From NCBI GenBank assembly GCA_964353635.1, contig CAYGVS010000004.1, positions 1 to 54,106 of the forward strand: a stretch of 54,106 bases of DNA. Direction: 5' to 3'. Positions 7,957 through 47,708 of the stretch are shown piece by piece; the first letter of the stretch is position 1; every line of letters begins with the position of its first letter. The stretch comes from an uncultured archaeon. Lineage in GTDB: Archaea; Aenigmatarchaeota; Aenigmatarchaeia; QMZP01. The notes under the pieces were generated by a model. It saw only the letters and a list, made by a program, of their open reading frames with translations. It searched no databases and was not told the origin of the DNA. The position numbers and the translations under genes were made by a program.

Positions 7957-8894
7957 CGTTTTCTAAATCCTTTATGCCAATCTATTGTGAATTTTAGCCC
8001 CTCTGCTATGCTTATTTTGGGTCTCCATTTTAAATGTTTATCAGCTTTGTCTATATCTGCGCACATGTGCCAAATCTCATTTTTCCTGTGTGGGATTGCC
8101 CCCCAGGCTGGTTTAACTTTGTTGCCAATTAGACTGCTTACAAGATTGGTAATGTCTCTTATGCTAGTTGAATGGCCTGTTCCGATGTTAAAAATCTCGT
8201 GTTTATTTGGCAGTTTTGGCATGGTTATCAATTTCATGTAAGCGTCAACTATATCATCAACATAAATAAAGTCCCATTGCTGCTTTCCGCTAGTCATTTT
8301 AAGGTGTTCTTTAGCTAGGATTGTCCGTATCAGATAAGGAATGAGTTTTTTTTCATTGTCATATGGTCCGTATGGAGGGAAGAGGCGAAAAGTCACTATA
8401 TCCAGCCCATATTTTTCTGCGTAAAAATTACACGCATTTTCCGCCTGAATCTTTGTCATAGCGTAAAGGTTAAAGGGGTCGAGTCTTGAATCTTCCTTTA
8501 TCTTTTCCCTTATGCTTTTGTAAACGAAACAAGAACTTGTATTTACGAACAGCTTCACTCCGTACTCCTTTGAGGCCTCTAGAAGATTTCCCGTGCCTAG
8601 GATATTCGTATTTACCATCAAGGGTATATCCTGCGGCTTGTGGTCAGGTGAATAGTTCGTTGCTAGATGAAATATGATATCAGGCTCAAATTCTGAGATT
8701 GTCTTTAAAACATCCTCTGTCTTTTCTAAAGGGGTATCATATACATGTATTTTATCAATCAAGTCTTTAATTCTCCAGAGATCTGAATTCTGGCGCTTAA
8801 TTATCCCGATATCAATGTCATTGTTTACTAATCTTCTCACAACATTGGATCCGATAAATCCAGTGGCCCCAGTAACAAGAATTTTAGATTTCAT
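7953..8894 (-). CDS. NAD-dependent epimerase/reductase, CDP-abequose/paratose synthase-like
   Basis: TGATGFIG, YAMTK, YGPYD, QQWDFIYVDD; position between rfbF and rfbH. Confidence 0.75.
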   Translation of the reverse strand: MKSKILVTGATGFIGSNVVRRLVNNDIDIGIIKRQNSDLWRIKDLIDKIHVYDTPLEKTEDVLKTISEFEPDIIFHLATNYSPDHKPQDIPLMVNTNILGTGNLLEASKEYGVKLFVNTSSCFVYKSIREKIKEDSRLDPFNLYAMTKIQAENACNFYAEKYGLDIVTFRLFPPYGPYDNEKKLIPYLIRTILAKEHLKMTSGKQQWDFIYVDDIVDAYMKLITMPKLPNKHEIFNIGTGHSTSIRDITNLVSSLIGNKVKPAWGAIPHRKNEIWHMCADIDKADKHLKWRPKISIAEGLKFTIDWHKGFRKR

Positions 8895-9674
8895 TCAGTC
8901 ATCCCAAATCTTCCAGAATGCCCTATTACTATTCCATAGAGAGTTTAGGTAAATCATATCGCGCTGCGTATCCATGCATGTCCAATTTCCCTTATGTTCA
9001 TAAACCATCAGTTCACCGTCTTTAGCCAATTGCTCTAAGGGACCCACTTCAAAATCACACTTTTCATCGGAAAAAAGATAATTAAATATTTTTCTATTAA
9101 AAACAAAAAAACCGCCGTTTATCATCCCTTGGGAAAGTTGAGGCTTTTCGGTAAAAGATATTACTTTGTTCATATCCACTATCATTTCGCCAAACCTTGA
9201 TGGAGGCCTTACGCCCGTGACAGTGCCTATCTTTCCGTGTTTTTTATGAAAAGCCAACAGGTCGCTTAGATTTATGTCAGCCAGGCCGTCCCCATAGGTC
9301 AGCATGAATATATCCGAGTCTATGAACCTTTCAATTCTCTTTATTCTGCACCCCTTTAGGGCGCTCTCCCCTGTGTCGACTATTGTGACCTTCCATCCCT
9401 TTTCGCTATGGTTTTTATGCACTTCACATATTCCCTTGCCCAATTCGATGGTAAAGTCGTTTTTAATTGCGTCGTAATTGAAGAAATAGTGCTTTATCAT
9501 CTCCCCTTTATAGCCAGCCGCCAGGACAAAGTCATTAAAACCGTATGTTGAATACATTTTCATTATGTGCCATAAAATCGGCTTTTTACCAATATCTATC
9601 ATGGGTTTCGGCTTTGTTTCAGTCTCCTCCATTAGTCTTGTTCCTATCCCACCACATAATATCACAACTTTCAT
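8895..9674 (-). CDS. rfbF: Glucose-1-phosphate cytidylyltransferase
   Basis: ILCGGIGTRL..ET..KPKPM, VDTG, FMLTYGDG, INGGFF, W.CMDT.RD, 'AFWK.W' C-terminus. Confidence 0.93.
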   Translation of the reverse strand: MKVVILCGGIGTRLMEETETKPKPMIDIGKKPILWHIMKMYSTYGFNDFVLAAGYKGEMIKHYFFNYDAIKNDFTIELGKGICEVHKNHSEKGWKVTIVDTGESALKGCRIKRIERFIDSDIFMLTYGDGLADINLSDLLAFHKKHGKIGTVTGVRPPSRFGEMIVDMNKVISFTEKPQLSQGMINGGFFVFNRKIFNYLFSDEKCDFEVGPLEQLAKDGELMVYEHKGNWTCMDTQRDMIYLNSLWNSNRAFWKIWDD

Positions 9675-11763: not shown

Positions 11764-13575
11764 ATGTGCGGGATTTGCGGATTCAACTGGGAAGATAGGG
11801 AACTGATAAAGGAATGTGCTAGGATAATTTCCCACAGGGGTCCTGATGGCGAAGGTTATTACACTGACAGGAATGTCTCCCTTGGCCACAGGCGTCTGAG
11901 CATTATTGACCTTTCAAAGAAGGGGAAGCAGCCAATGTCAAATGAGGACGGGACAGTATGGATTACATTCAACGGGGAGATATATAATTACAAGGAGATA
12001 GGGGAAGGTCTGGAAAAATCAGGCCACACGTTCGCCTCCAACACGGACACAGAAGCCATAATCCATTCATATGAGCAATACGGCCCTGATTGTGTAAAGA
12101 AATTCAGGGGAATGTTCGCCTTCTGCATATGGGACTCGAGAAAGAGGATTCTTTTTTTGGCAAGGGACCCAATAGGGAAGAAGCCTGTATATTACTTCTG
12201 GGATGGAAAAATGTTCATATTCGCTTCGGAAATAAAGGCTATACTTGCAGCCGGGATTAAAAGGGAAGTAAATGTGCAGGGACTTCTGGCCTATCTTGCG
12301 TTCAATTATGTGCCTGGAGAGCAGACTTTTTTCAAGGGAATCTATAAAGTACTTCCCGGACATTTTCTTATACTAAGGGACGGGAAAATAAGCAAAAAAC
12401 AGTACTGGGAAATAAAGGAAGACATTGTGAATAAGGATGAAAAATATTTCAGCCAGGAGCTGGAAAGGGTTCTAGAAGAATCCACTCGGATAAGGATGCT
12501 CGCCTCTGACGTGCCTATAGGGGCCTTCCTTTCCGGCGGCCTGGACTCCAGCTCAATCGTGGCCCTGGCCAAAAAGCATGTTGGCTACCAGATGCACACC
12601 TTCTCGATAGGCTTCGAAACCTTTTCCGAGCTTGACTATGCCAAGGCTGTTGCGGAAAGGCTTGATACGAACCACCGTGAAATAGAGCTGAAGGAAAAGG
12701 ATGTGATAAAGGCTCTGCCAAAAATAGCATGGCATTATGATGAGCCCATAGGCGACTCTGCAGTAATCCCTAACTACTTCCTATCCAGAGAAGCTAAAAA
12801 GAACGTGAAGGTTGTACTGGCGGGCGAAGGTGGGGATGAGCTTTTCGGGGGCTATCCACATTACAAGGCTGCCCTGAAGGCTTACAATTCCAGAATTCCG
12901 GAGCTGGCAAAAAGCAGCATTGCAGGCGCGCTTAGAGCCCTTCCCGAAAGCCCTATTAATGGAAGAAAGAGGAGGTTCCTCAGGCTCTATTCTCAAACAG
13001 ATTTGGACAGCATTCATTTCTCTTCAACAAGATTCCTCTCCGACAGTGAGATAAGCAAGATAACCAATCTGAAAGCGCTCAATCTAAACAGGATGACAGT
13101 AGGGCCAGCTGCTTTCACGAATCCGCTGAACAGGATGCTTTACCTGGACTGTAAGAACATGCTGCCTGAAAAATATCTTATGAAGGGAGACAAAGCGACC
13201 ATGGCCAATTCCGTAGAGGAGCGGCTACCGCTCCTTGACAAGAATCTCATAGAGTTCGCGTTTAGGATGAATCCAAACCTGAAAATTCATGAAGGGAAGG
13301 AAAAGTACATATTAAGGGAAGTTATGAAGAAAAAACTCCCAAACATTACTATCCAGAGGACCAAGCAGGGTTTCGGAACCCCAATAGAGCACTGGCTGAG
13401 GGGAGAGATGGGAGAGTTGGCAAGGAAAGAGATTTCAGAAAGCGGAATAATCAACCGGTATTTCAATGAAAAAATCTGGAAACTGATTGGTACAAAACCT
13501 AAAAATTACAGGCATGCCCAGATGACATGGTTGCTGCTCTCTATCGCTTTTTGGGAGAAAGAGGTTGCTGCATGA
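11764..13575 (+). CDS. asnB: Asparagine synthase-type glutamine amidotransferase, copy 1 (probably glycan amidation)
   Basis: MCGI N-terminal Cys, HRGPD, HRRLSIID, FNGEIYN, LSGGLDSS, GEGGDELFGGY, KQGF. Confidence 0.92.
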   Translation: MCGICGFNWEDRELIKECARIISHRGPDGEGYYTDRNVSLGHRRLSIIDLSKKGKQPMSNEDGTVWITFNGEIYNYKEIGEGLEKSGHTFASNTDTEAIIHSYEQYGPDCVKKFRGMFAFCIWDSRKRILFLARDPIGKKPVYYFWDGKMFIFASEIKAILAAGIKREVNVQGLLAYLAFNYVPGEQTFFKGIYKVLPGHFLILRDGKISKKQYWEIKEDIVNKDEKYFSQELERVLEESTRIRMLASDVPIGAFLSGGLDSSSIVALAKKHVGYQMHTFSIGFETFSELDYAKAVAERLDTNHREIELKEKDVIKALPKIAWHYDEPIGDSAVIPNYFLSREAKKNVKVVLAGEGGDELFGGYPHYKAALKAYNSRIPELAKSSIAGALRALPESPINGRKRRFLRLYSQTDLDSIHFSSTRFLSDSEISKITNLKALNLNRMTVGPAAFTNPLNRMLYLDCKNMLPEKYLMKGDKATMANSVEERLPLLDKNLIEFAFRMNPNLKIHEGKEKYILREVMKKKLPNITIQRTKQGFGTPIEHWLRGEMGELARKEISESGIINRYFNEKIWKLIGTKPKNYRHAQMTWLLLSIAFWEKEVAA

Positions 13576-14705
13576 AAATCCTAATCCTTGGCTCTAAGGA
13601 ATATCCTATGGGCTCCAACAAAGGCGACGACCCGATACCTTCAGGTGGGATGGAGACCTATGTGGATGATATAGCTCTGGCGCTTTCAAAACACTGCGAG
13701 CTTGTTATAGTCACCAGGAAATTCAAGGGGACAAAAAAACATGAACGGACGGGGAGCATAGAGATCCTGAGGGTTCCATATATAAAGGGAAAATATTTCA
13801 GGAACCCCACTTTCAATCTTCTTTCCTTCCTTGCATCCTTGCGGCTTATGAAGGATGTTGATGCCATATATCCTCAAGGTATTATAGCCTCATTCTTCAG
13901 CTATATTCTTTCCAAGCTTTCAGGCAAGCCCGTGGCTTGCAGGCCGGCCGGGATAGCCTACGATCAATATAAGTTTCCACTGAATAAAATTCTCTTCCTA
14001 CTGACAAAAAGCATTTACATGAAATGTGACTGTGTGGTGTTTCATTCCGAGGGGGAGAGGGACAACTTCGTAAGAATCCTTAGATTCACCCCAAAAAGGA
14101 GCAAGGTGATACTCACTGGCATACCTGTGAAAAAGTTCTCCCGTCATATAAAAAGCACTAAGCGTGATTTCGGAATCCTTGAAAAGACTCCAGTAATCGG
14201 GTTTATAGGAAGGTTTGTAGAGGTCAAGGGGATTGAATATCTTGTGCGGGCTGCTTCCCTGCTGAAAGAGAAGAACATCAAGTTCCTCATGGTAGGGGAT
14301 GGTCCCCAGAAGCCTGAGATAGAAAGCCTTATAAAAAGCCTGGGGCTTGAGGAGAATTTTGTCTTTACAGGATTCACGAGGGAGATACCCAAGGTTTTGG
14401 CTGCAATGGACGTGTTCGTGATATCCTCCACCTCAGAAGGCCTTCCCACCTCACTCCTGGAAGCCATGGCAGCGGCCAAACCTTGCATAGTCACAGACAT
14501 AGGCCTCCCTGTTGAGAACATGAAAACAGGCCTGGTCGTGCCTCCAAAAAGCCCAGAGAGCCTGGCGCAAGGGATAGAAAAGCTTTTACATGACAAGAAA
14601 CTGTGCAATCATCTAGGTCAGAATGCACAAGCATTCGCTATGGAGAACTGCACGCAAGAAAAGGCTGCAAAAAAGCATTACGAGCTCTTTAACTCCCTGA
14701 TTTAA
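13572..14705 (+). CDS. GT4 glycosyltransferase
   Basis: SGGMET, IGRF..VKG, EGLPTSLLEAMAA; ATG overlaps asnB stop (ATGA). Confidence 0.9.
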   Translation: MKILILGSKEYPMGSNKGDDPIPSGGMETYVDDIALALSKHCELVIVTRKFKGTKKHERTGSIEILRVPYIKGKYFRNPTFNLLSFLASLRLMKDVDAIYPQGIIASFFSYILSKLSGKPVACRPAGIAYDQYKFPLNKILFLLTKSIYMKCDCVVFHSEGERDNFVRILRFTPKRSKVILTGIPVKKFSRHIKSTKRDFGILEKTPVIGFIGRFVEVKGIEYLVRAASLLKEKNIKFLMVGDGPQKPEIESLIKSLGLEENFVFTGFTREIPKVLAAMDVFVISSTSEGLPTSLLEAMAAAKPCIVTDIGLPVENMKTGLVVPPKSPESLAQGIEKLLHDKKLCNHLGQNAQAFAMENCTQEKAAKKHYELFNSLI

Positions 14706-15418
14706 TCAGGGAACGCGGGAGGCAGCCTTCTTTTATGCTCCGTAGACGCATGCATCCTTTTCGCTTTCTCAACAAGCGCAGGGTCCATGCTTTTTGTGTC
14801 GCCCTTGGCAATCCCCTCTATTACCATGTCCAGCTGCTCGTAGGTTATGCCCATCTCTTTCTCATCCGTCTGGCCTTCCCAGAGTCCTGCGGAAGGCGGC
14901 TTGTCTATTATCTCCTTCGGGATACCAAGCTCCTTGGCGAGCATCCTCACCTCTGTCTTAAGAAGGTGAGATATGGGAAGTATGTCCACTCCGCCGTCCC
15001 CGTACTTTGTGAAATATCCTGTGAATGATTCCGTCCTGTTATCCGTTCCGGCAACCAGATATCCCAAGGTGTTGGCAAAATAGTAAAGGGTAAGCATGCG
15101 CAGCCTGGGCTTGAGGTTCGCCCTGGCGATGCCGTTACCTTGAGGCAGCGCTTTCATAAGCGTGTCGCATGCTGGCCCCAAGTCCACGGTCTGTGTCTTT
15201 ATCCCGAACTTCCTTGCAAGCATGTGCGCATGCTCCATGTCTTCAGGGTTTGAATGGCAGGGCATGATAACGCCCAAGACCTTGTCCCCGAGAGCCTTTT
15301 TTGAAAGCACAGCCACAACAGAGGAGTCTATCCCTCCACTCAAGCCCACAACAACGCCTTTCGCCCCGGATTCCTTGGCTTTTTCCTTTATCCAGGTCTG
15401 TATCTTTTCAGAACTCAT
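14702..15418 (-). CDS. nadE: NH3-dependent NAD+ synthetase
   Basis: GLSGGIDSS, NLKPRLRM, GYFTKYGDGG, KPPSAGLW.GQTDE, EHKRR. Confidence 0.95.
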   Translation of the reverse strand: MSSEKIQTWIKEKAKESGAKGVVVGLSGGIDSSVVAVLSKKALGDKVLGVIMPCHSNPEDMEHAHMLARKFGIKTQTVDLGPACDTLMKALPQGNGIARANLKPRLRMLTLYYFANTLGYLVAGTDNRTESFTGYFTKYGDGGVDILPISHLLKTEVRMLAKELGIPKEIIDKPPSAGLWEGQTDEKEMGITYEQLDMVIEGIAKGDTKSMDPALVEKAKRMHASTEHKRRLPPAFPD

Positions 15419-16752
15419 AACAGCCACCTCTTATCTCCTGCAATATGATACTCAACACGCGTCTTTTCGAAATCTATATCTTTCCAGATTCCTGTATTGT
15501 CCAGGACAACCTTGCATTTTTTGAGATTGCTCAGTACAACTGTATTTGGAGTGAACCTGTAAATTTGATGGTCTGCCACAAGGAGGATTGCATCAAACTC
15601 CTGAAGGCCTTCTGGAAACTTGAAGGTCTCGCAGCCGGTTATTTTCCTTATCTCCTGTTCTGTGTAAAGAGGGTCATGAATCTTGACGGAAATTCCCTTC
15701 TCCTTCAGCCTTTGCGCAATCTTTATTGTCGGCGAAAGTATGTCCACTTTTATATCCCCTTTGTAAGCAAGGCCTAGTATGCCAGCTTTCCTGCATCCTC
15801 TTTTTGCAATCGAATCCGCAACAACAAAAGGTTGTTTGCTGTCCGTCTCTATGGCTGATCTAAGGATAGTCAACTGCTCTGGATTCTTTGCGCCAAGAAG
15901 AACGTATTGCGAGGAGAGGGGTATGCAATATCCCCCTGTTCCAAAGCTTGGAAAGTACGTTCCGATGTTCCATTTGGTTCCTACAAGTCTCAGCACTTCC
16001 TTCATGTCTATTTCCGGGTAGGCAAGCGAAAGCTGGTTGGCCAAGGTTATTTCAGCATGCCTGTACGCATTTTCTATTGACTTTATCATTTCAGCATGCT
16101 TGTGGTCTGGCGCAGGAATGAGGCTGTCGCATATTATGGAAAGCGCGTCCTTCATAAACTTTGTCGTTTCCTGAGTTGTCCCTCCTATTATCCTCGGGAG
16201 GTTCTTCAGGCTCTTTTCCGGAGAGATGAACCAATCCCTCCTGGGTGCGACCCCAAGAAGAATATCCTTTCCGACTTTAAGTCCGGCTTTCTCGAATATG
16301 GGAATCACAACATTGTCCGTCCTTCCTGGCGTAAGGGTGGACTCTATTATCACAAGGGGAGGTTCGCCTCCGGCCTTATAGGAAGAAATCTTCTTTACCA
16401 CATCTTCAAGTATGGCGTCGTAAGGCTTGCCATCCTTCTCTGTTGGGATGGCTATCATATGCACAGCCACGTCGGCCTTAAGCAGTTCTTTCCACTCTGT
16501 TGTAGCCCTCAGCAAACCGTTATCAACAAGAGGCTTTACATCAAAACCGAGCCATTTCTCGAAATTCTCTATGGGTATGAGACCCCTGTTTATGGTGTCG
16601 ACCTTTTCCTGAATTACATCCATGCCTATGCATTTGACGCCGTTAAAGGCAAAATTGGCCATGGTGGAATAGCCTATATAGCCAGTTCCCCACACTCCCA
16701 CTTTCTTCTCCCCACTAAGAAGCTGCCCTTTTATGTTTTCAAGGACCATCAT
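15415..16752 (-). CDS. Nucleotide-sugar 6-dehydrogenase (UDP-ManNAc/UDP-GlcNAc dehydrogenase family)
   Basis: GTGYIG, IESTLTPG, K.IENAYR, GGYCIP catalytic Cys, LGLAYK. Confidence 0.88.
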   Translation of the reverse strand: MMVLENIKGQLLSGEKKVGVWGTGYIGYSTMANFAFNGVKCIGMDVIQEKVDTINRGLIPIENFEKWLGFDVKPLVDNGLLRATTEWKELLKADVAVHMIAIPTEKDGKPYDAILEDVVKKISSYKAGGEPPLVIIESTLTPGRTDNVVIPIFEKAGLKVGKDILLGVAPRRDWFISPEKSLKNLPRIIGGTTQETTKFMKDALSIICDSLIPAPDHKHAEMIKSIENAYRHAEITLANQLSLAYPEIDMKEVLRLVGTKWNIGTYFPSFGTGGYCIPLSSQYVLLGAKNPEQLTILRSAIETDSKQPFVVADSIAKRGCRKAGILGLAYKGDIKVDILSPTIKIAQRLKEKGISVKIHDPLYTEQEIRKITGCETFKFPEGLQEFDAILLVADHQIYRFTPNTVVLSNLKKCKVVLDNTGIWKDIDFEKTRVEYHIAGDKRWLL

Positions 16753-16804
16753 AACACCTAAAGAATTAGTGTCCAAAAATGCTTATATACCTATTTATTA
16801 CCGA

Positions 16805-16822
16805 GTAATACTTTTATATTAC
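16805..16822. promoter_or_regulatory. Palindromic operator candidate GTAATA-N6-TATTAC (copy 1)
   Basis: GTAATA cttttaTATTAC, just upstream of the minus-strand TATA (16782-16789) of the dehydrogenase-nadE genes; extra TATTAC half-site at 16796-16801. Confidence 0.6.
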
Positions 16823-17628
16823 TTTATCTTATCAAGGTCTTTTTCTGAATGGATATTAACAGCAGTCCCAGAAACCATGCAGCCGTAAAGCTTCCTTTCC
16901 TTCACAAGCCTGGGAAATATCTCCGTCTGCAAAGTCCATTTTACATTCCCCTTTGGGATGTAGTCGAATATCTTAGGGCTGCACATGGATATGAAAGCTG
17001 AAGTGAGGAATGTTTTCGGGTTTTTGGGCTTCTCCTCATATCCTATTATCTGATCGCCTGCCATCTCCACAACACCCAGGTCGGAAAGCGATTCCCTTGT
17101 GGACTGCACAGCCAGCGTGACAACCGCATCGTGCATGGAATGAGTCCTGGAAAGGCTGGACAGATCAAAATCAAAGTAGTTGTCTATTGGAAGAACGAGG
17201 AATGGGGACTTCAGATAGTTCTCAGCAAGTTGGAGTGTCTTCGCGTTTCCCAAAGCCTTCTTCTCCTCAATGTAATTTATCTCCACGCCAAAGGAGCTTC
17301 CGTTTCCGACAACCTTGAAGCATTCTCCTATGAGACTTCCACCAGCCACGAAATAGATTTTCCTGAACCCAGCACTCTTGAGCTGTTCTATGTTATGGAC
17401 AATTAGGGGCTTGCCTCTTATCTTCAGTAGAGGCTTGAAGACGCCTTCCACCTTCACCTTCTCTTCACCCCCTCCGCCAAGGAAGACCGCAATCTTGTTG
17501 GCTTCAAGAAACCTTGCCGCAATGGTTTCCAAGGCTTCTGACCTGGAACGGATATTGCTGCCATCTACTATAGAATCCAGCTTTCTGAGTATGTCTTCCG
17601 AGATTGTCATGGAGATTCTCTTTTTCAT
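16819..17628 (-). CDS. Ribbon-helix-helix DNA-binding domain fused to a degenerate sugar-phosphate nucleotidyltransferase domain
   Basis: N-terminus MKKRISMTISEDILRKLD..SRSEALE (NikR/CopG-like RHH); then FKPLL.I.GKP, GNGSSFGV.I.Y, EEKP; GGxGTRL signature reads GGGGEEK. Confidence 0.8.
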   Translation of the reverse strand: MKKRISMTISEDILRKLDSIVDGSNIRSRSEALETIAARFLEANKIAVFLGGGGEEKVKVEGVFKPLLKIRGKPLIVHNIEQLKSAGFRKIYFVAGGSLIGECFKVVGNGSSFGVEINYIEEKKALGNAKTLQLAENYLKSPFLVLPIDNYFDFDLSSLSRTHSMHDAVVTLAVQSTRESLSDLGVVEMAGDQIIGYEEKPKNPKTFLTSAFISMCSPKIFDYIPKGNVKWTLQTEIFPRLVKERKLYGCMVSGTAVNIHSEKDLDKIK

Positions 17629-17630
17629 AC

Positions 17631-17648
17631 GTAATATTTTGGTATTAC
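17631..17648. promoter_or_regulatory. Palindromic operator candidate GTAATA-N6-TATTAC (copy 2)
   Basis: GTAATA ttttggTATTAC between the RHH gene start and a shared TTTTTAAA box in a 49-nt divergent gap. Confidence 0.65.
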
Positions 17649-17677
17649 TTTTTAAATCATTGCCACAAACTAAAACC

Positions 17678-18598
17678 ATGATTCTGGTAACAGGAGGCTC
17701 AGGCTTCATAGGCTCGCACATAGCGGAAAGGCTCATCAAGGAAGGCCATTCTGTGAGGGTCCTGGACAGCATGCTAACAGGAAGAAAGGAGAATATGGCT
17801 GGGCTAAAGGCCGAATTCATAAAAGGCGACATAAGGGACCCTGGAGTAATAAAGAGATCCCTCAAGGATGTTGAGTGTATTTTTCATGAGGCTGCGCAGG
17901 TCTCAATCCCGCGGTCAATAGAGAACCCGGTTGAGAACAATGGGATAAATGTGGATGCCACTCTCCTCCTGCTGGACAGCGCAAGGAAATCAGGCGTCAA
18001 AAAACTGGTCTTCGCATCCTCTTCAGCTGTTTATGGGAACGTCACGGTAAAGGACCTCCCCCTGAAAGAGGACAGGATACTTTCGCCGCTCTCCCCTTAT
18101 GCGGTATCAAAGCTCGTTGGAGAGCACTATTGCAGGGTTTTTTCTGACATTTATGGGATGGCTACGATATGCTTGAGGTACCTTAATGTTTACGGCCCCA
18201 GACAGAATCCAAATTCGCAATATGCTGCTGTCATACCCAAGTTCATAGATTCCGTAATTAAAGGTAAGCAGCCCGTGATATTCGGGGATGGGATGCAAAC
18301 GCGCGACTTTGTCTTTGTCAAAGATGTTGTCCAGGCGAACATGCTTTCCATGAAATCCAATGTAAAGCATGGTATATTCAATGTAGGGACAGGGAAACCC
18401 ACGAGTGTGCTTGAGCTTTTGGAGAAGATTAATTCAATAACAGGAAAAAGGATAAAGCCGATTTTCTCAGAGCCCAAGCCTGGGGATATAAAGCATTCTG
18501 TTTCTGACATATCCAGGATAAAGGGCACCCTTGGGTTCAAGCCAGAATACTCTTTGGACCAAGGTTTAAGGGAAACTGTGGGGAGCTTCACATCTTGA
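17678..18598 (+). CDS. UDP-glucose/UDP-GlcNAc 4-epimerase (extended SDR)
   Basis: TGGSGFIG, HEAAQVSIPRS, YAVSK, NVYGPRQNP.SQYAAVIPKF. Confidence 0.9.
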   Translation: MILVTGGSGFIGSHIAERLIKEGHSVRVLDSMLTGRKENMAGLKAEFIKGDIRDPGVIKRSLKDVECIFHEAAQVSIPRSIENPVENNGINVDATLLLLDSARKSGVKKLVFASSSAVYGNVTVKDLPLKEDRILSPLSPYAVSKLVGEHYCRVFSDIYGMATICLRYLNVYGPRQNPNSQYAAVIPKFIDSVIKGKQPVIFGDGMQTRDFVFVKDVVQANMLSMKSNVKHGIFNVGTGKPTSVLELLEKINSITGKRIKPIFSEPKPGDIKHSVSDISRIKGTLGFKPEYSLDQGLRETVGSFTS

Positions 18599-19745
18599 CA
18601 CCAAAGGCGCGCCAGCTCCATCCGCCCATCTGGCTGGTCCACGTTTCCTTAAGCTTGGCGTCCCTAAGCCATTTTTCCACATCCTCCATGCTATAGTAAT
18701 TGTTCACAGGCGTCCCGAGCAGGTCATAGGAGTCCGCATGCTTAACCATGAAGGGGAAGCGCGCATAGTTCTTGAAGGGCATCTTATTGGCAATCCCTTT
18801 CATGCCCAGGTCATTAAAGAAATGGTATAGCATATTGGATGAGTGGTAAATAGATGCAGGAATGTAGCATATGTAATAAAGCATTCTTCGTGGCATCCTG
18901 ACCGTGAATTTCCTTAACACCCCCTCCACCACTTTCATCCTGAAGAACTTGTCATTCTTCCCGTAAAGCCAGATGAAAATCGAGCTGTTCGGCTTCATTA
19001 ACCCCACAAGGCTGAGGAAGCCGTCCTCTGGTCTCGGGAGATGGTGCAAAACCCCAATGGAGAATATGAAATCGGAGACTTTCCTAAAGGGAGGGTTGTA
19101 TATGTCCCCCTGGATTATGTGCGCATGTGGGAACTGCTTCATGTTCATGTAGGCAGACTCCACAGCATCGCTCAGGTCGAAACCCACTACCTCTGACCCG
19201 AATTCAGCCGCGTAATACGTGTGCCTCCCGAAGCCGCAGCCCGCGTCCAGCACGAGCTTGCCCCTGAAGAAATCCGGCTTTATGGGTTCAATATACCTAA
19301 GGAAGTTTTCCCTGAATTCCTCTATTATTCCAGGGAACCTGTTCCACTGGAAGCCAAAGCTTCCTGCTGTCCTTCTCTTGAACTCTGATTCTCTCCCAGA
19401 TTTCCCAAATGGGAGATTCACCTTGCCTTTGTATTTTTCAAAGAACTTGGGATTCCTTTCAAGCACGCTTACCTTCAACTCGTCTGGGAACATCCTAGGG
19501 ATGCCTCCTATTATCGGGAACTGCCTTTTGCATTTGGCGCATGTAAGGACACCCTCAACTATCTCTTTCTTGAAGCACTCTGAGCAGTCCACCCCTTTTG
19601 GGGATTTTCCGTAAAAGCTGCAATGATGTCTGCAGAAGGTCTTTTTTTCAATCTTATGTCCTCGCCTTTCGCTTACAAAAACCTCTACGGACAGGCTGCC
19701 CTTGCACTCCGGGCATATGAGAAAGTCAAGAACCCTGTGCTTCAT
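18588..19745 (-). CDS. Trm112-like Zn-ribbon domain fused to class I SAM methyltransferase
   Basis: LDFLICPECK...EGVLTCAKCKRQFPIIGGIPRM (Trm112 pattern); VLDAGCGFGR motif I; SIGVLHH. Confidence 0.82.
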   Translation of the reverse strand: MKHRVLDFLICPECKGSLSVEVFVSERRGHKIEKKTFCRHHCSFYGKSPKGVDCSECFKKEIVEGVLTCAKCKRQFPIIGGIPRMFPDELKVSVLERNPKFFEKYKGKVNLPFGKSGRESEFKRRTAGSFGFQWNRFPGIIEEFRENFLRYIEPIKPDFFRGKLVLDAGCGFGRHTYYAAEFGSEVVGFDLSDAVESAYMNMKQFPHAHIIQGDIYNPPFRKVSDFIFSIGVLHHLPRPEDGFLSLVGLMKPNSSIFIWLYGKNDKFFRMKVVEGVLRKFTVRMPRRMLYYICYIPASIYHSSNMLYHFFNDLGMKGIANKMPFKNYARFPFMVKHADSYDLLGTPVNNYYSMEDVEKWLRDAKLKETWTSQMGGWSWRAFGVKM

Positions 19746-19827
19746 ATGCAACAAATGCATCTTTAATTTTATAAGCCGAATGTTCAACATCACTCTATGC
19801 TCGCACAGGCTTTAACCATAATCCTAG

Positions 19828-20637
19828 ATGAAGGTGTGCATGAAAGAAAATTTCTCATTCGGGAAGAACTGGCAGGTTTTCCTCAGGACTGTCAATGAGG
19901 AAAGGATAAAGGTAGCAGAACGTTCAATATCAGACTTCCTAGGAATTGGCAGCCTCAAAGGAAAGAGCTTCCTGGACATTGGCTGTGGGAGCGGCCTTTT
20001 CTCATATGCGGCTTTCAGGCTGAAAGCCAATGAGATTGTGAGCTTTGATCTGGACACCTTTTCAGTGGAATGCTGCAGGCATCTCAAAAAAGAGGCAGGA
20101 TCTCCTGACAACTGGAAGATCCTTACAGGCTCCATACTAGACAACGGATTTATATCCAAGCTCGGGAAATTTGACATTGTATACAGCTGGGGCGTTCTGC
20201 ACCATACTGGAAATATGTGGGTGGCCATAAGGAATGCCGCAGGGCTGGTGGACAAAAGGGGCTTCTTCTACATAGCCGTATACAACAAGACCAGGATGTC
20301 TGGATTTTGGCTCATCACCAAGAGGCTTTATAACTCCTTGCCGGAGGCGGGCAGGAAATCCATGGAAATGGCCTACATTATGGCTCTTATGGCAAAGAAC
20401 TGCATAAGGTTAAGGAGTTCCACAAGCGGCTTAAAGGAATACAAATCCACCAGGGGGATGGGCTGGAGGACTGATATAGCAGACTGGCTTGGTGGCTATC
20501 CATATGAATCTGCCACAGCGGAAGAGATAACTGGCTTCATGGAAAAGAACTTCCCCCGCTTCCGCCTCATCAACATAAAGAGAACCAATAGCTCAATGGG
20601 CAATAACTGGTTCTTGTTTAAAAATGGTGAACCATGA
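19828..20637 (+). CDS. Class I SAM-dependent methyltransferase
   Basis: FSFGKNW, FLDIGCGSG, SWGVLHHTG, DWLGGYPYE. Confidence 0.85.
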   Translation: MKVCMKENFSFGKNWQVFLRTVNEERIKVAERSISDFLGIGSLKGKSFLDIGCGSGLFSYAAFRLKANEIVSFDLDTFSVECCRHLKKEAGSPDNWKILTGSILDNGFISKLGKFDIVYSWGVLHHTGNMWVAIRNAAGLVDKRGFFYIAVYNKTRMSGFWLITKRLYNSLPEAGRKSMEMAYIMALMAKNCIRLRSSTSGLKEYKSTRGMGWRTDIADWLGGYPYESATAEEITGFMEKNFPRFRLINIKRTNSSMGNNWFLFKNGEP

Positions 20638-21826: not shown

Positions 21827-23650
21827 GTGTGCGGGATAGTCGGGTTCAGTTGGGAGGATAAGGACTTGATTAGACAATGTGCCAGAACTATCGCTCACAG
21901 GGGTCCTGACGGAGAAGGTTATTATACAGACAGCCATGTTTCCCTTGGGCATAGGAGGCTTAGCATTATAGACCTTTCAGAGAGGGGAAAGCAGCCCATG
22001 TCAAATGAGGACGGGAGCGTCTGGATTGTATTCAACGGCGAGATATACAATTACAAGGAGCTTAGAGTCAGTCTCGAGAAGAAGGGTCACAAATTCTCCT
22101 CAGGGACAGACACAGAGGTGATTGTCCATGCGTATGAAGAGTTCGAGGGCGATTGTGTAAAAAAGTTCATGGGGATGTTCGCCTTCTGCATATGGGACTC
22201 GAAAAAACGTGTGCTCTTCCTCGCCAGGGATCATGTTGGGAAGAAGCCCCTTTACTTCCATTGGGATGGAGAGAGGTTCATATTCGCATCAGAGATAAAG
22301 GCCATAATCAGGGCAGGGGTGGAAAGGGCGGTGAACATGGGGTCCCTTCATGCTTTCCTGGGCTTCAATTACATCCCCGGCGAGCAGACGTTCTTCAAAG
22401 GCGTTAGAAAGCTCCTTCCCTGCCACACCCTCACGCTTAAGGACGGTAAGGTAAACACAAGTCAGTATTGGGACATCAGGGAGGACATCCTTGAGAGGGA
22501 TGAGGATTACTTTGTCCGGGAGCTTGAAAGCAAGCTTGAGGAGGCCACAAAGTTAAGGATGTTTGCATCTGACGTACCTATTGGGGCATTCCTCTCCGGA
22601 GGGATCGACTCGAGCAGCATCGTGGCGATGGCTGGCAAACACGTGGATTACAAGATGCACACATTCAGCGTAGGGTTTGGGGACTTCTTCTCGGAGCTCA
22701 AAGGGGCGATGGTGGTGGCCGAACATCTGGGAACCTCTCACCACGAGTTCAATCTGGATCCGAAGAAGGTTCTTAGAGAGCTACCTAGAATAGCATGGCA
22801 ATTCGATGAGCCTGTAGGGGATCCGGGATTGATACCGAATTTTTTCCTTTCACAGGAGGCCAGGAAGTACGTCAAGGTCGTCCTGGCAGGGGAAGGAGGG
22901 GACGAGCTTTTCGGTGGATATCAGCATTACAAAGCTGTGCTTGGAGCGCATAATCTCAGAATCCCCAAAATCGCCAGGCTGGGCATAGGGGCTGCTGCAA
23001 ACACCTTACCAACTTCTCTTGTTGGGGGGAGGAAGAGAAGATACGCCCTATTTCATTCAAAAACCAGCCTCGAGGATATGTACTTTGCCTCTGTAAGGTT
23101 CATGTCAGATAGGGAAGTAAGCTGGCTGGCAAGGGAAAGTGTGGGAGAGCTTAACTCGCTCGCGGTCAAGCCATCCCCTGGATTCAGGAAACCCCTCAAC
23201 ATTCTCCTGGCCATGGACTTCAAAAACACCCTTCCTGAAAAATACCTCATGAAGGCGGACAAGGCCACGATGGCCAATTCCATAGAGGAGAGGCTTCCTC
23301 TTATAGACAGGAATGTTGTGGATTTCGCCTTTAGGATACCCCCATGGTTCAAGATAAGGGGTGGTCAGGAAAAATATATCCTGAGGAAGGCCATGCAGAG
23401 AAAGCTCCCCGGTGCCATCATATCCAAGAAGAAGCAGGGCTTCGGCACTCCAATTGAGGCTTGGATGGCAGGGGAGATGGGGGAGGCAGCGAAGGAAACT
23501 TTAGAAAAAAGCAAAATCGTGAAGGATTATTTCAGCATTGAACGGGTGCGGGGAATTTTGAATGGCCGAAAGGGGAACTACAGACAGGCGCTGTTGTTGT
23601 GGCTTCTTTATTCTTTATGCCTATGGGAAAATACACTAGATAGGCGATAA
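21827..23650 (+). CDS. asnB: Asparagine synthase-type glutamine amidotransferase, copy 2
   Basis: GTG start, MCGI, HRGPD, LSGGIDSS, GEGGDELFGGY; colinear with copy 1. Confidence 0.92.
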   Translation: MCGIVGFSWEDKDLIRQCARTIAHRGPDGEGYYTDSHVSLGHRRLSIIDLSERGKQPMSNEDGSVWIVFNGEIYNYKELRVSLEKKGHKFSSGTDTEVIVHAYEEFEGDCVKKFMGMFAFCIWDSKKRVLFLARDHVGKKPLYFHWDGERFIFASEIKAIIRAGVERAVNMGSLHAFLGFNYIPGEQTFFKGVRKLLPCHTLTLKDGKVNTSQYWDIREDILERDEDYFVRELESKLEEATKLRMFASDVPIGAFLSGGIDSSSIVAMAGKHVDYKMHTFSVGFGDFFSELKGAMVVAEHLGTSHHEFNLDPKKVLRELPRIAWQFDEPVGDPGLIPNFFLSQEARKYVKVVLAGEGGDELFGGYQHYKAVLGAHNLRIPKIARLGIGAAANTLPTSLVGGRKRRYALFHSKTSLEDMYFASVRFMSDREVSWLARESVGELNSLAVKPSPGFRKPLNILLAMDFKNTLPEKYLMKADKATMANSIEERLPLIDRNVVDFAFRIPPWFKIRGGQEKYILRKAMQRKLPGAIISKKKQGFGTPIEAWMAGEMGEAAKETLEKSKIVKDYFSIERVRGILNGRKGNYRQALLLWLLYSLCLWENTLDRR

Positions 23651-23731: not shown

Positions 23732-25198
23732 TTAGTGTATAGATGATTGAAATTGCTTGTGATAAAGGCCTTGGAACGACTCGAATATTTCTTTGTCAAT
23801 GTTAAAACCGAAGAGTCCGTGTTTCATCCTGAAATCAGCTATTTTCTTGAAAGGGAATTCTAGAAGTGCCTTCGTGAATGAATCGGGTGTTGATTGAGCC
23901 CTCATCACATAGAACCAAGCGTTTGCGGCGATATCCGGTTCTGATATCCAGGGAAGCGAATCCAGGGATGCATACCCTTCGAAAAGATTCTTGCTTGACC
24001 ATTCCCTTAGCGTAAGAGGCTCCTTAAAGAGTCCCTTAACCTCATTGTAAAGGCTGCAACCTGGATAAGGTCTAAAAACCTGGGGTCCGATTATGTAAGC
24101 TTTGGGGTTTATTTTCTTGATTTTTGTAATCAACCTTAGCGTTTCCATCATATCCTTTTTTTCTTCGCCAGGAATACCTATCATGAAGGAACATATTGTA
24201 TTAATATCAAATTTCCTACATGTAGTGACTGCGTTTAATATCTGTGGCATTGTAATCTCTTTTTTCAATTTGTTAAGGATTTTTTCTGAGCCGGATTCTA
24301 TCCCCATGGCCAGTGTGGTGCAGCCGCTCTTCTTAGCAAGTCGCATAAGACTATTATTCAAATGGTTTTCGTTGAAATAGTTTGCCCTGGTGTTTGCATG
24401 CCATTTCACATCAATATTTTCTGAAATCATTGCCTCACAGAACTCCTCAACCCTTTTTTTGTTTACGAAAAAATTCTCATCCATGAATTGGATATATTCA
24501 ATGCCGTATCTTTCTGTGAGTATTTTCACCTCATCGAGTATTTTTCCAGCGTTTAGTGGTCTCCATCTGTTTTCCAAAAGGTTTATGCAGAATGCACAAT
24601 TGTATACACAGCCCCTTCCTGAATGAAGAGGTAAGGATTTGCCAAAGGATTTTCCTCCTATTTTGAAATCGCTTATATATTCCCTGATTTTTAGTATTTC
24701 CCATTCCGGTGGAGACAATGTATTTAGATCCAGAAATTCCCTTTTAGGAGTCACTCTAACTTTACCGTTTTCCTTATAAACAAGCCCCTTAATGTCGCTT
24801 ATTTTTCCTTTTCCTTCAAGCCAGGATGACAGCTCTAACAGCGTGATTTCCCCTTCATTGGTTATCACAAAGTCGACTGACTTGTCCTCGACTGTTTGTT
24901 TGGGATACAGTGTTGGGTGTATCCCGCCCCATACGACTTTGATGTCAGGATCCTTTTCTTTTACCAAATCAGATAGTTCTATTGCATTTTTCACTTGGTT
25001 CGTCATTACAGAAAATCCTACTATATCCGATTTCAGAATAAGTGGCCTGAGTTTTTTTCCGATGTTTTCTATTTGAGAATCGACAACCTTTACTGTATGC
25101 CCTTTTCTGTGCAACGCGGTTGCCAGATATAAGAGCGACAAATGTAACTGTTTTTGCGATTTTTTCTCCCCCTCTGGATTAACCAGGGTTATTTTCAT
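23732..25198 (-). CDS. B12-binding domain radical SAM protein
   Basis: WGGIHPT, NEGE, GRGCVYNCAFC (CxxxCxxC), GIESGS, PYPG. Confidence 0.9.
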   Translation of the reverse strand: MKITLVNPEGEKKSQKQLHLSLLYLATALHRKGHTVKVVDSQIENIGKKLRPLILKSDIVGFSVMTNQVKNAIELSDLVKEKDPDIKVVWGGIHPTLYPKQTVEDKSVDFVITNEGEITLLELSSWLEGKGKISDIKGLVYKENGKVRVTPKREFLDLNTLSPPEWEILKIREYISDFKIGGKSFGKSLPLHSGRGCVYNCAFCINLLENRWRPLNAGKILDEVKILTERYGIEYIQFMDENFFVNKKRVEEFCEAMISENIDVKWHANTRANYFNENHLNNSLMRLAKKSGCTTLAMGIESGSEKILNKLKKEITMPQILNAVTTCRKFDINTICSFMIGIPGEEKKDMMETLRLITKIKKINPKAYIIGPQVFRPYPGCSLYNEVKGLFKEPLTLREWSSKNLFEGYASLDSLPWISEPDIAANAWFYVMRAQSTPDSFTKALLEFPFKKIADFRMKHGLFGFNIDKEIFESFQGLYHKQFQSSIH

Positions 25199-25252
25199 AA
25201 TAATAAAACGAAAATACACTTAAATATTCAGTATAAGGTAAATGACGGTAGT

Positions 25253-26770
25253 ATGAATGAGAAAGAAGTTGAAATGGGATACTTAAAAACCATAGCGAAG
25301 GGAGCGGGATTAGTACTGATAGGAATGATAATTTCTAAGTTTATTAGCTTTCTTTATTTGATTTTCGTTGCAAGGTATTTCGGGGTGCAGGATTATGGGA
25401 TGTTTTCCTTGGTAATTGCGGTTATAGGAGTTGTTAGCGTGCTGGCGGTTCTGGGATTACCAACAGCTGTCACAAGATTCGTATCTTATTACGAAAGTAA
25501 AAAATCCAAACATAAAACCAAGGGGATTGTGATTGGATCACTAAAGATGTCGCTTCTGCTTTCGACAGCAATCACCATAATTCTTATCCTGTTCTCTGAT
25601 CTTATTGCTTTCTACTTGTTCCATGACTCAACTGGAAAAATGAGCCCCTTGATAAAGATAATGAGCCTTTCCATTCCTTTTTATTCTTTGTTCACGATTT
25701 CTAACTCTGCATCCGTAGGCCTCAAGAAGGTGGAACATAAGGTGTATACTGAATATATATCCCAGAACCTTCTGAAGCTTGTTTTCACTTTCATATTCGG
25801 GATAATTGGACTGGGTGTTATTGGGATAGGCCTTGGCTGGGCGGTATCGATAATGCTTACTGGACTCCTTGCAGCATACCTTCTGAACAGGATCTTTCCC
25901 CTGAAAGGAAAGATCAAAGCCCCGAATATGAAAACTGAGCTGATGAAATTCTCCTTTCCTCTGCTGCTGATAAGCTTTCTAGGGGTGATTGTCACTTATG
26001 CAGACAGTATAATGATAGGCTTCTTCAAGAATCCGGAAAGCGTCGGCATATACAATGCTGCAATGCCAGTGGCCCAGATCCTAATGGCGCCTTCAGCCAT
26101 TATCGTTTCCCTTCTGCTCCCAGTATTCTCGGAAGCTTACGTAAAAAAGGGAATTGAGGATGTCAAGAAAATTTTCATCACGGTTTCAAAATGGTCATTT
26201 TATATGGCGTTTCCCTTCCTGATTTTGTTCATTACTTTCCCTTCTTTCATTCTCAGCTTCATTTTCAGTAATGCTTTCTTTGGGGATAACATAACCACGG
26301 GAAGCATGACGCTAGTCCTTTTGTCCTGCGGTTACTTCGTGACATTCATCACTCAGCCCATTATTAACCTCTTCTATCTACTGAAGAAGAACAAGGTACT
26401 GCTCATAATAAGCGCTATAGGAGGATTAACCAACTTTCTGCTGAACCTTGCTCTCATTCCAGAGTATGGTATAATTGGTGCCTCTTCGGCTTTGCTGGTA
26501 TCGTATCTTTTGAATTCCGTCATTTTCGTCGCCATGGCATGGAGATATACAGGGACAACAGGCTTCAGCCTTGACTATTCAAAAAGCATAATTGCTGTAT
26601 TGGTGTCAATAAGCATTAGTATGCTCCTGAAAGGCCATATTTCCTTCATCTTCATAGGAATAGCTTATTTCGGCTTCTACACGATTTTACTGCTGCTTTT
26701 GAAAGGATTCTCAAAAGCAGACAAAGAGATATTCAATGCTATATTGAGAAGGCTGGGGAAAAGAAAATAA
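25253..26770 (+). CDS. Oligosaccharide flippase (Wzx/MOP family)
   Basis: About 12-14 TM helices, 'ARYFG..DYG', 'DSIMIG', 'VGIYNAA', 'LIPEYGIIGA'. Confidence 0.9.
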   Translation: MNEKEVEMGYLKTIAKGAGLVLIGMIISKFISFLYLIFVARYFGVQDYGMFSLVIAVIGVVSVLAVLGLPTAVTRFVSYYESKKSKHKTKGIVIGSLKMSLLLSTAITIILILFSDLIAFYLFHDSTGKMSPLIKIMSLSIPFYSLFTISNSASVGLKKVEHKVYTEYISQNLLKLVFTFIFGIIGLGVIGIGLGWAVSIMLTGLLAAYLLNRIFPLKGKIKAPNMKTELMKFSFPLLLISFLGVIVTYADSIMIGFFKNPESVGIYNAAMPVAQILMAPSAIIVSLLLPVFSEAYVKKGIEDVKKIFITVSKWSFYMAFPFLILFITFPSFILSFIFSNAFFGDNITTGSMTLVLLSCGYFVTFITQPIINLFYLLKKNKVLLIISAIGGLTNFLLNLALIPEYGIIGASSALLVSYLLNSVIFVAMAWRYTGTTGFSLDYSKSIIAVLVSISISMLLKGHISFIFIGIAYFGFYTILLLLLKGFSKADKEIFNAILRRLGKRK

Positions 26771-27321: not shown

Positions 27322-27403
27322 ATTTATCAATATAGTCGAATATTTAATAGAATTCTTATAGAAGGCATTAAATAAGCTTTGTATTAAATACTTAGTGAAA
27401 AGT

Positions 27404-43171: not shown

Positions 43172-43188
43172 TTTCTAGTTTTTAACAG

Positions 43189-44274: not shown

Positions 44275-44318
44275 TGATTACTTATTGGCATTGTTATCTT
44301 AAATTGTTGCTTGAGAAA

Positions 44319-44615
44319 CTAACGGCAACCGTTGCTGCCGCAATTTGAAGGACTGCCAAAACCGTAGCCATAATAACCATAATAACCGTATCCGGGCACA
44401 AAAAATACATCAGGTCTTTTATATTTTGTTCCAGATTCACCTGTTTTTTCGTTGACATATGTATCTGCGCCTTCACCTATGTTTAATGCTCTGACTGTTC
44501 CTCTGCTATCCCTTGCCATATTAAGTGAGGGCATACAAGCTTCTTGAAGAGAAGCTGTAAAGAGTGTAGTGGCTAATGCTCCTATTCTTACATATTTGTT
44601 GTTAATAATCTTCAT
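44319..44615 (-). CDS. Small secreted/lipoprotein-like protein with Gly/Tyr-rich tail
   Basis: GGTGA RBS and TTTAAATA box upstream; signal-like N-terminus ending QEAC; GYGYYGYYGYG and CGSNGC tail. Confidence 0.6.
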   Translation of the reverse strand: MKIINNKYVRIGALATTLFTASLQEACMPSLNMARDSRGTVRALNIGEGADTYVNEKTGESGTKYKRPDVFFVPGYGYYGYYGYGFGSPSNCGSNGCR

Positions 44616-44691
44616 ATAATCACCACTTTATAGTGATAATAACAGATAGATATTTAAAGCTTTCGCTTAGCTTATAAGCAAGTTTTAATGC

Positions 44692-45612: not shown

Positions 45613-45651
45613 CGTTATCTCTTTAATATATGTATATTTTCGTTTATAAGT

Positions 45652-46710: not shown

Positions 46711-46744
46711 CAATAATATTATACTGCCCAATCTATTTATTGAT

Positions 46745-47257: not shown

Positions 47258-47293
47258 GGCCTGCAATTTAATAGCTGAACGCCAATTATTGTT

Positions 47294-47698: not shown

Positions 47699-47708
47699 CC
47701 CGGGGCTC

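Follow-up and report, generated by a model that had tools for sequence, protein, structure and literature searches.

Ribbon-helix-helix (RHH) regulators of the Omega, MetJ and Arc type bind cooperatively, one dimer per short repeat, whether the repeats are direct or inverted, and in the case of NikR the half-sites of the operator lie about 16 bp apart. PutA and BirA are active metabolic enzymes that also serve as repressors, the DNA-binding domain of PutA being itself an RHH. To our knowledge, gene regulation has hardly been explored in the DPANN archaea, which are mostly uncultured. In this study, we have analysed a 54,106-base stretch of DNA from an uncultured archaeon of the Aenigmatarchaeota (contig CAYGVS010000004.1; the whole stretch is hereafter called the window), which encodes a protein, P0001, that joins a predicted RHH domain to a nucleotidyltransferase-like domain and whose gene is flanked by arrays of a short DNA box. 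Two further systems bear on such a combination. GMPPA, a non-catalytic paralogue of GDP-mannose pyrophosphorylase, is reported to bind GDP-mannose as a feedback sensor (PMC11228364), and the effect of TrmBL1 of Pyrococcus depends on where it binds, being repression at a site downstream of the TATA box and activation at one that precedes the transcription factor B (TFB) recognition element (BRE) and TATA box (PMC4706686).

An earlier examination of the window from its letters alone (the sequence-only reading) had taken the gene for that of a regulator with twin palindromic operators, controlling the supply of nucleotide sugars. Its interpretation as a whole is supported by the present analysis, in which binding to DNA and the sensing of a particular ligand remain the conditional parts. 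We put at roughly 0.6 the probability that P0001 is a one-component archaeal transcription factor that reads arrays of the box GTAWTAC, represses its own gene, controls a dehydrogenase-nadE gene pair and uses its pseudoenzyme domain as a sensor of a nucleotide sugar or sugar phosphate. What has been observed directly is how the protein is built, that its catalytic motifs are lost, and that the arrays stand, in a conserved manner, beside the regulator and beside genes for nucleoside-diphosphate (NDP)-sugar metabolism.

Results

A fusion of an RHH and a nucleotidyltransferase-like domain

The regulator gene (16819..17628, minus strand) encodes a protein of 269 residues, as read from the open reading frame (ORF) and its translation. 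Residues 1-44 (17497..17628, minus strand) form a predicted RHH DNA-binding domain, identified from the secondary structure of an AlphaFold2 model of P0001 (mean pLDDT 91, pTM 0.83) and from a family profile. The model, whose N-terminus is extended, shows a strand (RISMTIS), a helix (11-20), a turn and a second helix (29-43), that is, the N-terminal strand-helix-helix of about 40-45 residues by which the RHH superfamily is recognized. Arg4, Ser6 and Thr8 of the strand and the Arg29-Ser30 turn are conserved in the family; Ser28 and Ser30 of the turn are described as invariant and Arg29 as nearly so, and in an alignment of 220 family sequences Arg29 is present in 209, Ser30 in 211 and Glu34 in 203. 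The Pfam model RHH_1 matches residues 4-41 (E 1.4e-3; 19 bits, for a cut-off of 20.5), and an annotation as PF01402 was precomputed for 15 of 72 relatives. In the Protein Data Bank (PDB), the first 44 positions of the family profile, built from 34 members, match the RHH of NikR over positions 3-44 (1q5v, E 1.1e-4; 2bj1, E 3.6e-4), and there is a weak match to the NCBIfam model nikR. A second hallmark of the superfamily, repeated short operator subsites near the own promoter, is found here as the GTAWTAC arrays. By fold and operator style, P0001 is, as far as sequence and predicted structure tell, an RHH regulator. A complex prediction with two copies of P0001 (alignment A1) scored 0.20 and 0.17, below the mark of 0.42 set for any call, either way.

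The remainder of the protein, residues 45-269 (16822..17496, minus strand), is a nucleotidyltransferase-like domain, the presumed ligand-sensing module. Foldseek comparison of the modelled domain with the PDB finds 8x7s, a UTP-glucose-1-phosphate uridylyltransferase (TM-score 0.74-0.76), followed by RmlA and GMPPB, and hmmsearch with the family profile gives 8x7s again (E 1.5e-24), with RmlA, GMPPB and GMPPA (chain 7d72_A, E 2.1e-11) next. P0001 thus has the Rossmann-like fold of the sugar-1-phosphate nucleotidyltransferases, and the fusion named in the sequence-only reading is borne out by Pfam, family profile, model and fold search alike. The Pfam model NTP_transferase (PF00483) covers residues 63-250 with 71 bits, the match beginning at profile position 20 and leaving the glycine-loop part of the model unmatched.

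Alignment with canonical enzymes (A2) locates the differences. The enzymes' LAGGxGTRLRPLTxxxPKPL becomes L(G/A)GGxxxxL-K...(K/R)PL in the family, and in P0001 the loop is a degenerate GGGGEEKV (residues 51-58; 17455..17478, minus strand), in which the Thr and the catalytic Arg of GxGTR(L/M) are gone and which has two residues fewer than the loop of the aligned enzymes. Similarly, the enzymes' WxDxG reads xVNIH, with Asn258 (16855..16857, minus strand) at the site of the second metal-binding Asp. P0001 lacks the signature of an active enzyme because the GTR loop is gone and Asn replaces the metal-binding Asp, and its C-terminal domain is, judging by these motifs, most likely no longer catalytic. 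The EEKPK motif (residues 198-202; 17023..17037, minus strand), the sugar-phosphate site of the enzymes, is kept in translation and alignment. The loss of GGxGTRL (as GGGGEEK, residues 51-57), the retention of EKP and the catalytically reduced state of the domain, all put forward earlier, therefore hold at the level of sequence. P0001 also retains Lys65 (P-K-P), Asp149 ((L)xGD) and Glu199-Lys200 (E-K-P). Conservation within the domain is highest at the canonical substrate-pocket positions, namely Gly52-Gly53, Glu121-Glu122, Gly127, Asp149 and Glu199 (of the 220 sequences, 206 have Gly127, 214 Asp149, 161 Glu199 and 133 Lys200). Position 258 is Asn in 109, Asp in 51 and His in 30, and a GTR-type loop occurs in 7. 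A canonical nucleotidyltransferase with an intact CGGIGTRL loop is also encoded in the window, at 8895-9674.

Of 1117 candidates in the homolog search, 85 proteins reached E <= 1e-3, and 72 of these constitute the fused family (E <= 1.5e-38; P0011, P0059 and P0069 are partial). Their named sources are DPANN, Aenigm(at)archaeota, Micrarchaeota and Nanoarchaeia, and the closest relatives, P0002-P0011, share 79-85% identity with P0001. An exhaustive profile search gave 251 clusters (50% identity) at E <= 1e-30, mostly with DPANN labels; nearly all of the best 150 of these match from profile position 1-3 and therefore carry the RHH. In a FastTree phylogeny of 218 rows, from which the loop and Asp/Asn columns had been removed beforehand, P0001 falls into a clade of 93 rows (support 90), 92 of them with Asn258 and none with a GTR loop, enclosed by a clade of 120 rows (support 99), again without any GTR loop. 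On this distribution, the loss of both catalytic features is old and stable in the P0001 clade. Six of the seven sequences with a GTR-type loop are sister RHH fusions (P0122, P0136, P0147, P0149, P0190 and P0194). These have the canonical GGxGTRLRPLT...PKPL, mostly with the Asp of WxDxG too, and match NTP_transferase with 130-180 bits from profile position 1-2; by their motifs, they are possible true enzyme-repressors. They branch nearer the root than P0001, in a tree with many weak branches and a non-fused outgroup that is not monophyletic, which suggests that an active fusion came first and decayed later; the canonical-loop fusion is likely the ancestral state, to judge from the sequences. 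Among the matches listed in full-text literature searches, none describes an RHH-nucleotidyltransferase fusion. We rate P0001 as an RHH regulator of the one-component kind in which both the pseudoenzyme domain, as a putative sensor, and the operator defined here are new.

Box arrays in the window and in orthologous loci

Motif scans of the source organism cover the window, in which the exact palindrome GTAATA-N6-TATTAC occurs at 16805-16822 and 17631-17648 only; none of 100 dinucleotide-preserving shuffles contains any. Its presence on both sides of the gene, as noticed in the sequence-only reading, is confirmed. The former copy overlaps the regulator stop codon and the latter stops 2 nt short of the regulator ATG. 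Two extra copies, at 46287 and 46397, appear with up to two mismatches and were rejected as further sites, since a total of at least 4 (shuffle mean 1.21) is reached in 6 of 100 shuffles.

What repeats is a 7-bp box, GTAWTAC, self-complementary apart from its centre base, which forms arrays of 2-7 boxes at a spacing of 10-11 bp, in inverted and direct orientation; the earlier idea of an operator made of one 18-bp palindrome had to be given up. The upstream candidate operator (17631..17648, unstranded) has two boxes, at 17631-17637 and 17642-17648, and reads GTAATAC-CAAA-ATATTAC on the gene strand. The downstream one (16795..16822, likewise unstranded), delimited by the box scan, reads TTATTAC-CGA-GTAATAC-TTTT-ATATTAC and has three boxes, not two (16795-16801, 16805-16811 and 16816-16822). 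A longer consensus, GTAATAC-N4-ATATTAC, is common to both sites on the gene strand.

The ortholog sample, drawn from one scan of GTDB genomes, has 51 loci, which together with the window amount to 433,522 bases. Taking as a box pair two GTAWTAC boxes with at most one mismatch in total and a spacing of 10-12 bp, we found 68 pairs, compared to 0-4 in 20 block shuffles, and 63 of the 68 fall into regulator-adjacent zones (at most 100 nt before the regulator start or at most 80 nt past its stop) that make up 2.31% of the sequence. The ortholog loci with boxes diverge to 34-67% identity. In the 100 nt before the ortholog starts, a box sequence recurs, usually straight after a TTTAAA-type box and straight before the ATG. 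Allowing up to one mismatch, we found a pair in the 80 nt ahead of the start in 29 of 47 loci, and allowing up to two in 31, these 47 being the loci left once L011, L030 and L048, which are 5'-truncated, and L051, whose gene is split, are set aside. Past the regulator stop, the window and 13 loci (L001-L012, L030) share the layout [GTAATAC-N4-GTATTAC-N3-GTAATAA]-ATAGT-TATTTAAA-about 25 nt-AGGTG-ATG. The motif is therefore found near orthologs and far above the AT-rich background, and the idea survives both computational tests named in the sequence-only reading. The other five pairs lie at the distal end of the downstream array of L012, at the start of the split L051 gene, in L049 (one pair, 2973-2990, 51 nt upstream of an epimerase gene) and in L016 (two pairs, 8183-8210, upstream of an operon with a short-chain dehydrogenase/reductase (SDR) and a dehydrogenase). 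The gene behind the L016 and L049 arrays is SDR epimerase/decarboxylase-like, with an NDP-sugar dehydrogenase next to it in L016, a hint that some lineages have a small regulon of genes for the modification of NDP-sugars.

Among 57 unique pairs, the spacing is 9 bp in 2, 10 bp in 21, 11 bp in 33 and 12 bp in 1, with none at 8, 13 or 14 bp; the centre bases of 55 pairs are A-T in 28, T-T in 12, T-A in 9 and A-A in 6, and 18 of these 55 are in direct rather than inverted orientation. The box is the unit, and not an RNA hairpin, because these 18 pairs are direct repeats that are unable to form one. Spacing and orientation are as expected if each box takes up one RHH dimer and all dimers line one face of the helix, and neither a single 18-bp palindrome nor an RNA structure would account for them. 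The 18-mer hairpin GTAATAC-N4-GTATTAC is weak (-1.5 to -4.4 kcal/mol) and Rfam has no family at 14000-20000 at E <= 1, so that, with a third of the pairs direct, an RNA explanation of the boxes was rejected. No tRNA genes were found in the window.

Some loci of the sample deserve separate mention. In L022, L023 and L024, labelled Hod-/Hermodarchaeota, the DNA-reading strand is R-I-T-I-T-I, with Thr for Ser, and no GTAWTAC is found upstream. No upstream GTAWTAC is found either in L026, L027, L029, L032 and L034, whose strand is as in box-bearing relatives; a change of the strand as the cause of box loss was thus discarded for want of a clean correlation. In L027, L029, L032 and L034, the upstream region ends, right before the ATG, in CTTAATT, possibly an operator of another kind. 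L010, labelled as a Polyangiaceae bacterium, equals the archaeal L005 in sequence around the gene and is probably mis-binned. The regulator of L051 appears split into two frames, and L017 and L036 are paralogues about 7 kb apart on one contig, with boxes at L017 only.

Promoters and neighbouring genes

An A/T-rich TATA-like element read from the sequence, TTTTTAAAT (17649..17657, unstranded), adjoins the upstream box copy, and 21-29 nt separate it from each of the divergent start codons (17628 and 17678); by archaeal promoter geometry, it may serve both the regulator and the epimerase genes. On the gene strand, the regulator promoter reads TTTAAAAA-GTAATAC-CAAA-ATATTAC-GT-ATG, the boxes filling the gap between TATA box and ATG, and the same order is found in L001, L002, L003, L006 and L009. 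The regulator transcript is probably leaderless, which fits because the TATA box is 21-28 nt from the ATG. The upstream operator would sit at the BRE position of the divergent epimerase promoter. On the other side, the TATA-like box of the dehydrogenase-nadE operon, TATATAAG (16782..16789, minus strand), also read from the sequence and corresponding to TTATTTAAA in related loci, stands beside the downstream copy, the third box being 4-5 nt away from it. A TATA-like box next to each copy had been described before, and both are where it was said.

The gene for a nucleotide-sugar dehydrogenase (15415..16752, minus strand; TIGR03026 245.7 bits, cut-off 189.8; three UDPG_MGDP_dh Pfam domains) is preceded by AGGTG at 16755-16759 and followed by that for NadE, the NAD+ synthase (14702..15427, minus strand; TIGR00552 282.6 bits and PRK13980 276.4 bits, cut-off 255, both above cut-off). 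The two genes are probably co-transcribed because they overlap by 13 nt, and the earlier naming of both stands. The neighbour on the opposite side (17678..18598, plus strand), the 4-epimerase of the sequence-only reading, is a TviC/GalE-like SDR epimerase (Pfam Epimerase, 215 bits); its best NCBIfam matches, TviC (220 bits) and GalE (199 bits), are both below cut-off. According to Pfam, the gene downstream of the regulator encodes a UDPG_MGDP_dh-family dehydrogenase in the window, L001-L006, L008 and L011, and L007 has an epimerase and then a dehydrogenase; L030 has ORFs of matching size, assigned by size only, and in L009, L010 and L012 the available DNA ends within about 1 kb and no downstream gene was called. 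NadE comes after the dehydrogenase, by Pfam, in the window, L001 (6197-6931), L004 (6159-6953) and L008 (6234-6965), and ORFs of 243-244 residues, assigned by position and size only, occupy its place in L002, L006, L011 and L030; every close relative scanned has the dehydrogenase-NadE order. With NadE under the three-box promoter, the supply of NAD+ may be linked to a sugar oxidation that consumes it; alternatively, a further function of the NadE-like enzyme is conceivable.

Genes for UDPG_MGDP_dh proteins, SDR epimerases, RmlC/RmlD-like proteins and glycosyltransferases stand beside the regulator in most loci scanned, and SDR dehydratases and other nucleotidyltransferases likewise neighbour it across loci. 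In a subgroup (e.g., L026, L027, L033 and L037), ribosomal protein S3 lies downstream, and upstream there are small ORFs without clear families, one of them matching an archaeal pilin. In the window, the regulator is mid-way in a glycan-biosynthesis island of about 30 kb (1-30121). The island contains two PMT_2 proteins, glycosyltransferases of families GT2 and GT4, a DegT aminotransferase, several SDR epimerases, an RmlC-like gene, the canonical nucleotidyltransferase (8895-9674), two AsnB-like amidotransferases (11764-13575 and 21827-23650), a flippase (25154-26770) and B12-binding radical S-adenosylmethionine enzymes (23732-25219 and 27395-28954). The G+C content falls to 35-40% at 4-10 kb and 24-32 kb of the window. 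Adjoining the island, an ORF of 1585 residues (30212-34969, plus strand) has Laminin_G_3, a concanavalin-like lectin domain, as its sole Pfam match and may be a surface or adhesion protein. A methyltransferase fused to an N-terminal Trm112-like zinc ribbon (18588-19793, minus strand) is convergent with the epimerase gene, with an 11-nt overlap, and six consecutive ORFs of 284-444 residues at 41837-49043 have no Pfam match at E <= 1e-6.

Discussion

That P0001 binds DNA, in which direction it acts on its targets, that it is inactive as an enzyme and that it has a ligand, and which, are all inferred, in a model as follows. The RHH domain would dimerise, one dimer reading one GTAWTAC box, and boxes one helical turn apart (10-11 bp) would be bound cooperatively. 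Binding between the TATA box and the start of its own gene would block the recruitment of RNA polymerase, resulting in autorepression, and at this upstream operator the bound protein would also lie where the BRE of the divergent epimerase promoter is expected. Binding to the three boxes abutting the TATA box and BRE of the dehydrogenase-nadE operon would control that operon, with repression by TFB occlusion as our first choice and activation as the alternative; occlusion is favoured because the third box lies so close to the TATA box (4-5 nt). The C-terminal domain, without the triphosphate-handling GxGTR loop and one metal-binding Asp but with the other pocket residues in place, would bind a nucleotide sugar or sugar phosphate and thereby change the affinity for DNA, in such a way that the supply of oxidised or epimerised UDP-sugars to the glycan island would track the precursor level. 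Because of the position rule of TrmBL1, the regulator is expected to repress itself and the dehydrogenase operon to be regulated with either sign. More tentatively, P0001 could be the first member of a so far undescribed family of factors, widespread in DPANN archaea, in which an ancestral enzyme-repressor has become an NDP-sugar sensor that switches itself off from downstream of its TATA box and drives or gates dehydrogenase-NadE from upstream; we regard this wider proposal as possible but doubtful.

A number of observations weigh against the model of an autorepressing, ligand-sensing pseudoenzyme. The RHH_1 score of P0001 is below the Pfam cut-off, and the evidence that P0001 binds the boxes is solely their co-location with its gene. 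The downstream array, which is upstream of its TATA box, is in archaea compatible with activation as well as repression. Lys65, Asp149 and Glu199-Lys200 are kept, which from the sequence leaves residual catalysis conceivable, and the family includes the six canonical-loop fusions and 51 of 220 members with Asp258. As 16 of the 47 loci have no recognisable upstream pair even at two mismatches, autoregulation is not universal in the family, and the close relatives L004, L005, L007, L008, L010 and L012 have the downstream array only. Five near-duplicate pairs of loci (L005/L010, L020/L021, L033/L035, L037/L039 and L045/L046) mean that the locus counts overstate the number of independent cases. 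In the 54 kb of the window there is no further box array (four pairs at up to two mismatches, shuffle mean 2.9), and single perfect boxes number 5 where 8.5 are expected; the sole pair added at two mismatches, at 30690-30706, is within shuffle expectation and was dismissed as a sign of a wider regulon. The regulon of the sequence-only reading is thereby reduced to the two flanking promoters, which do carry arrays: with no other array in 54 kb, a local circuit rather than a wide regulon is indicated.

The most serious competitor, which we consider possible while preferring another sign of regulation, is a dual regulator that activates the dehydrogenase-nadE promoter and represses only its own. 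The three-box array is wholly upstream of the TATA box, in a strictly conserved position, and TrmBL1 activates from upstream of BRE/TATA and represses from downstream (PMC4706686); this has to be set against the third box, which at 4-5 nt from the TATA box overlaps the expected BRE and favours TFB occlusion. The retained pocket residues and the intact fold would suit a bifunctional protein of the BirA or PutA kind as well, an active enzyme that still makes an NDP-sugar with a non-canonical loop and is also a repressor, in which occupancy by substrate or product feeds back on DNA binding, and the related RHH fusions with canonical loop and Asp indicate that the fusion probably began as an active enzyme. 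We consider this unlikely for P0001 itself, as the loop of its clade is without Thr-Arg and two residues shorter, Asn is found in 92 of 93 rows, the Pfam match starts only at profile position 20 with 71 bits, and the window already has a canonical enzyme.

Arrays with helical periodicity imply higher-order assembly and many sugar nucleotidyltransferases are oligomeric, so that the C-terminal domain might have no ligand and merely oligomerise RHH dimers on the arrays, P0001 then being a constitutive autoregulator. A scaffold would have no need of the substrate-pocket positions, which are the most conserved of the domain, and we hold this explanation to be improbable too. Very unlikely, in our opinion, is that the boxes belong to another factor, or are RNA hairpins or terminators, and stand beside the gene by chance. 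The folding of GTAATAC-N4-GTATTAC, weak as it is, and the position of the downstream copy at a stop codon would speak for it; against it are the 18 of 55 pairs in direct orientation, which give no hairpin, the lack of an Rfam match at 14000-20000, and the fact that the arrays track the regulator across 34-67% identity and changing neighbours. All together, the sensor-regulator model with autorepression and control of dehydrogenase-nadE remains our preferred reading.

From a methodological point of view, a regulator, its operator sequence and its likely targets have been defined by comparative genomics alone, and metagenome-assembled genomes can be searched with the box-array model for glycan genes under such control. 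P0001 would join the few pseudoenzymes known to have been put to new use as sensors of metabolites, as a clear case, and the sister proteins with intact catalytic motifs make the transition from enzyme to sensor open to direct study. Cell-surface glycans probably matter for the attachment of DPANN archaea to their hosts. If the wider proposal above is right, P0001 would provide the first circuit of regulator, operator and ligand to be defined in these organisms, which depend on hosts and are largely uncultured, and it would couple NAD+ supply to the NAD+-consuming oxidation of sugars for cell-surface glycans.

Among the described systems, Omega, MetJ and Arc bind short repeats in the way proposed here for P0001; these are small bacterial or plasmid proteins with no enzyme-like domain and with unrelated box sequences. 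NikR, like P0001, has an N-terminal RHH and a sensor domain in one chain, and operator half-sites that flank or overlap the promoter. Its C-terminal domain, however, is a tetramerising nickel-binding one, in contrast to the nucleotidyltransferase fold of P0001, only the RHH part matches, and its two half-sites differ from an array of 7-bp boxes at 10-11 bp. TrmB and TrmBL1 of the Thermococcales are archaeal one-component sugar regulators whose effect is set by the position of the site relative to the TATA box (PMC4706686), as we propose here, but they have a winged helix, a different sugar-binding fold and the TGM motif, and belong to other lineages. GMPPA resembles P0001 in function only, in that, as reported for GMPPA (PMC11228364) and proposed for P0001, a sugar-1-phosphate nucleotidyltransferase fold without catalysis senses an NDP-sugar. 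Unlike P0001, it is eukaryotic, acts on an active enzyme and not on DNA, and has a C-terminal left-handed beta-helix, while P0001 ends at residue 269 without a Hexapep domain (Pfam).

PutA and BirA share with P0001 the combination of an enzyme fold with a DNA-binding domain and the regulation of genes of the same pathway. They are active, whereas P0001 has lost the loop and one metal ligand, and their closer analogues would be the sister fusions with a canonical loop.

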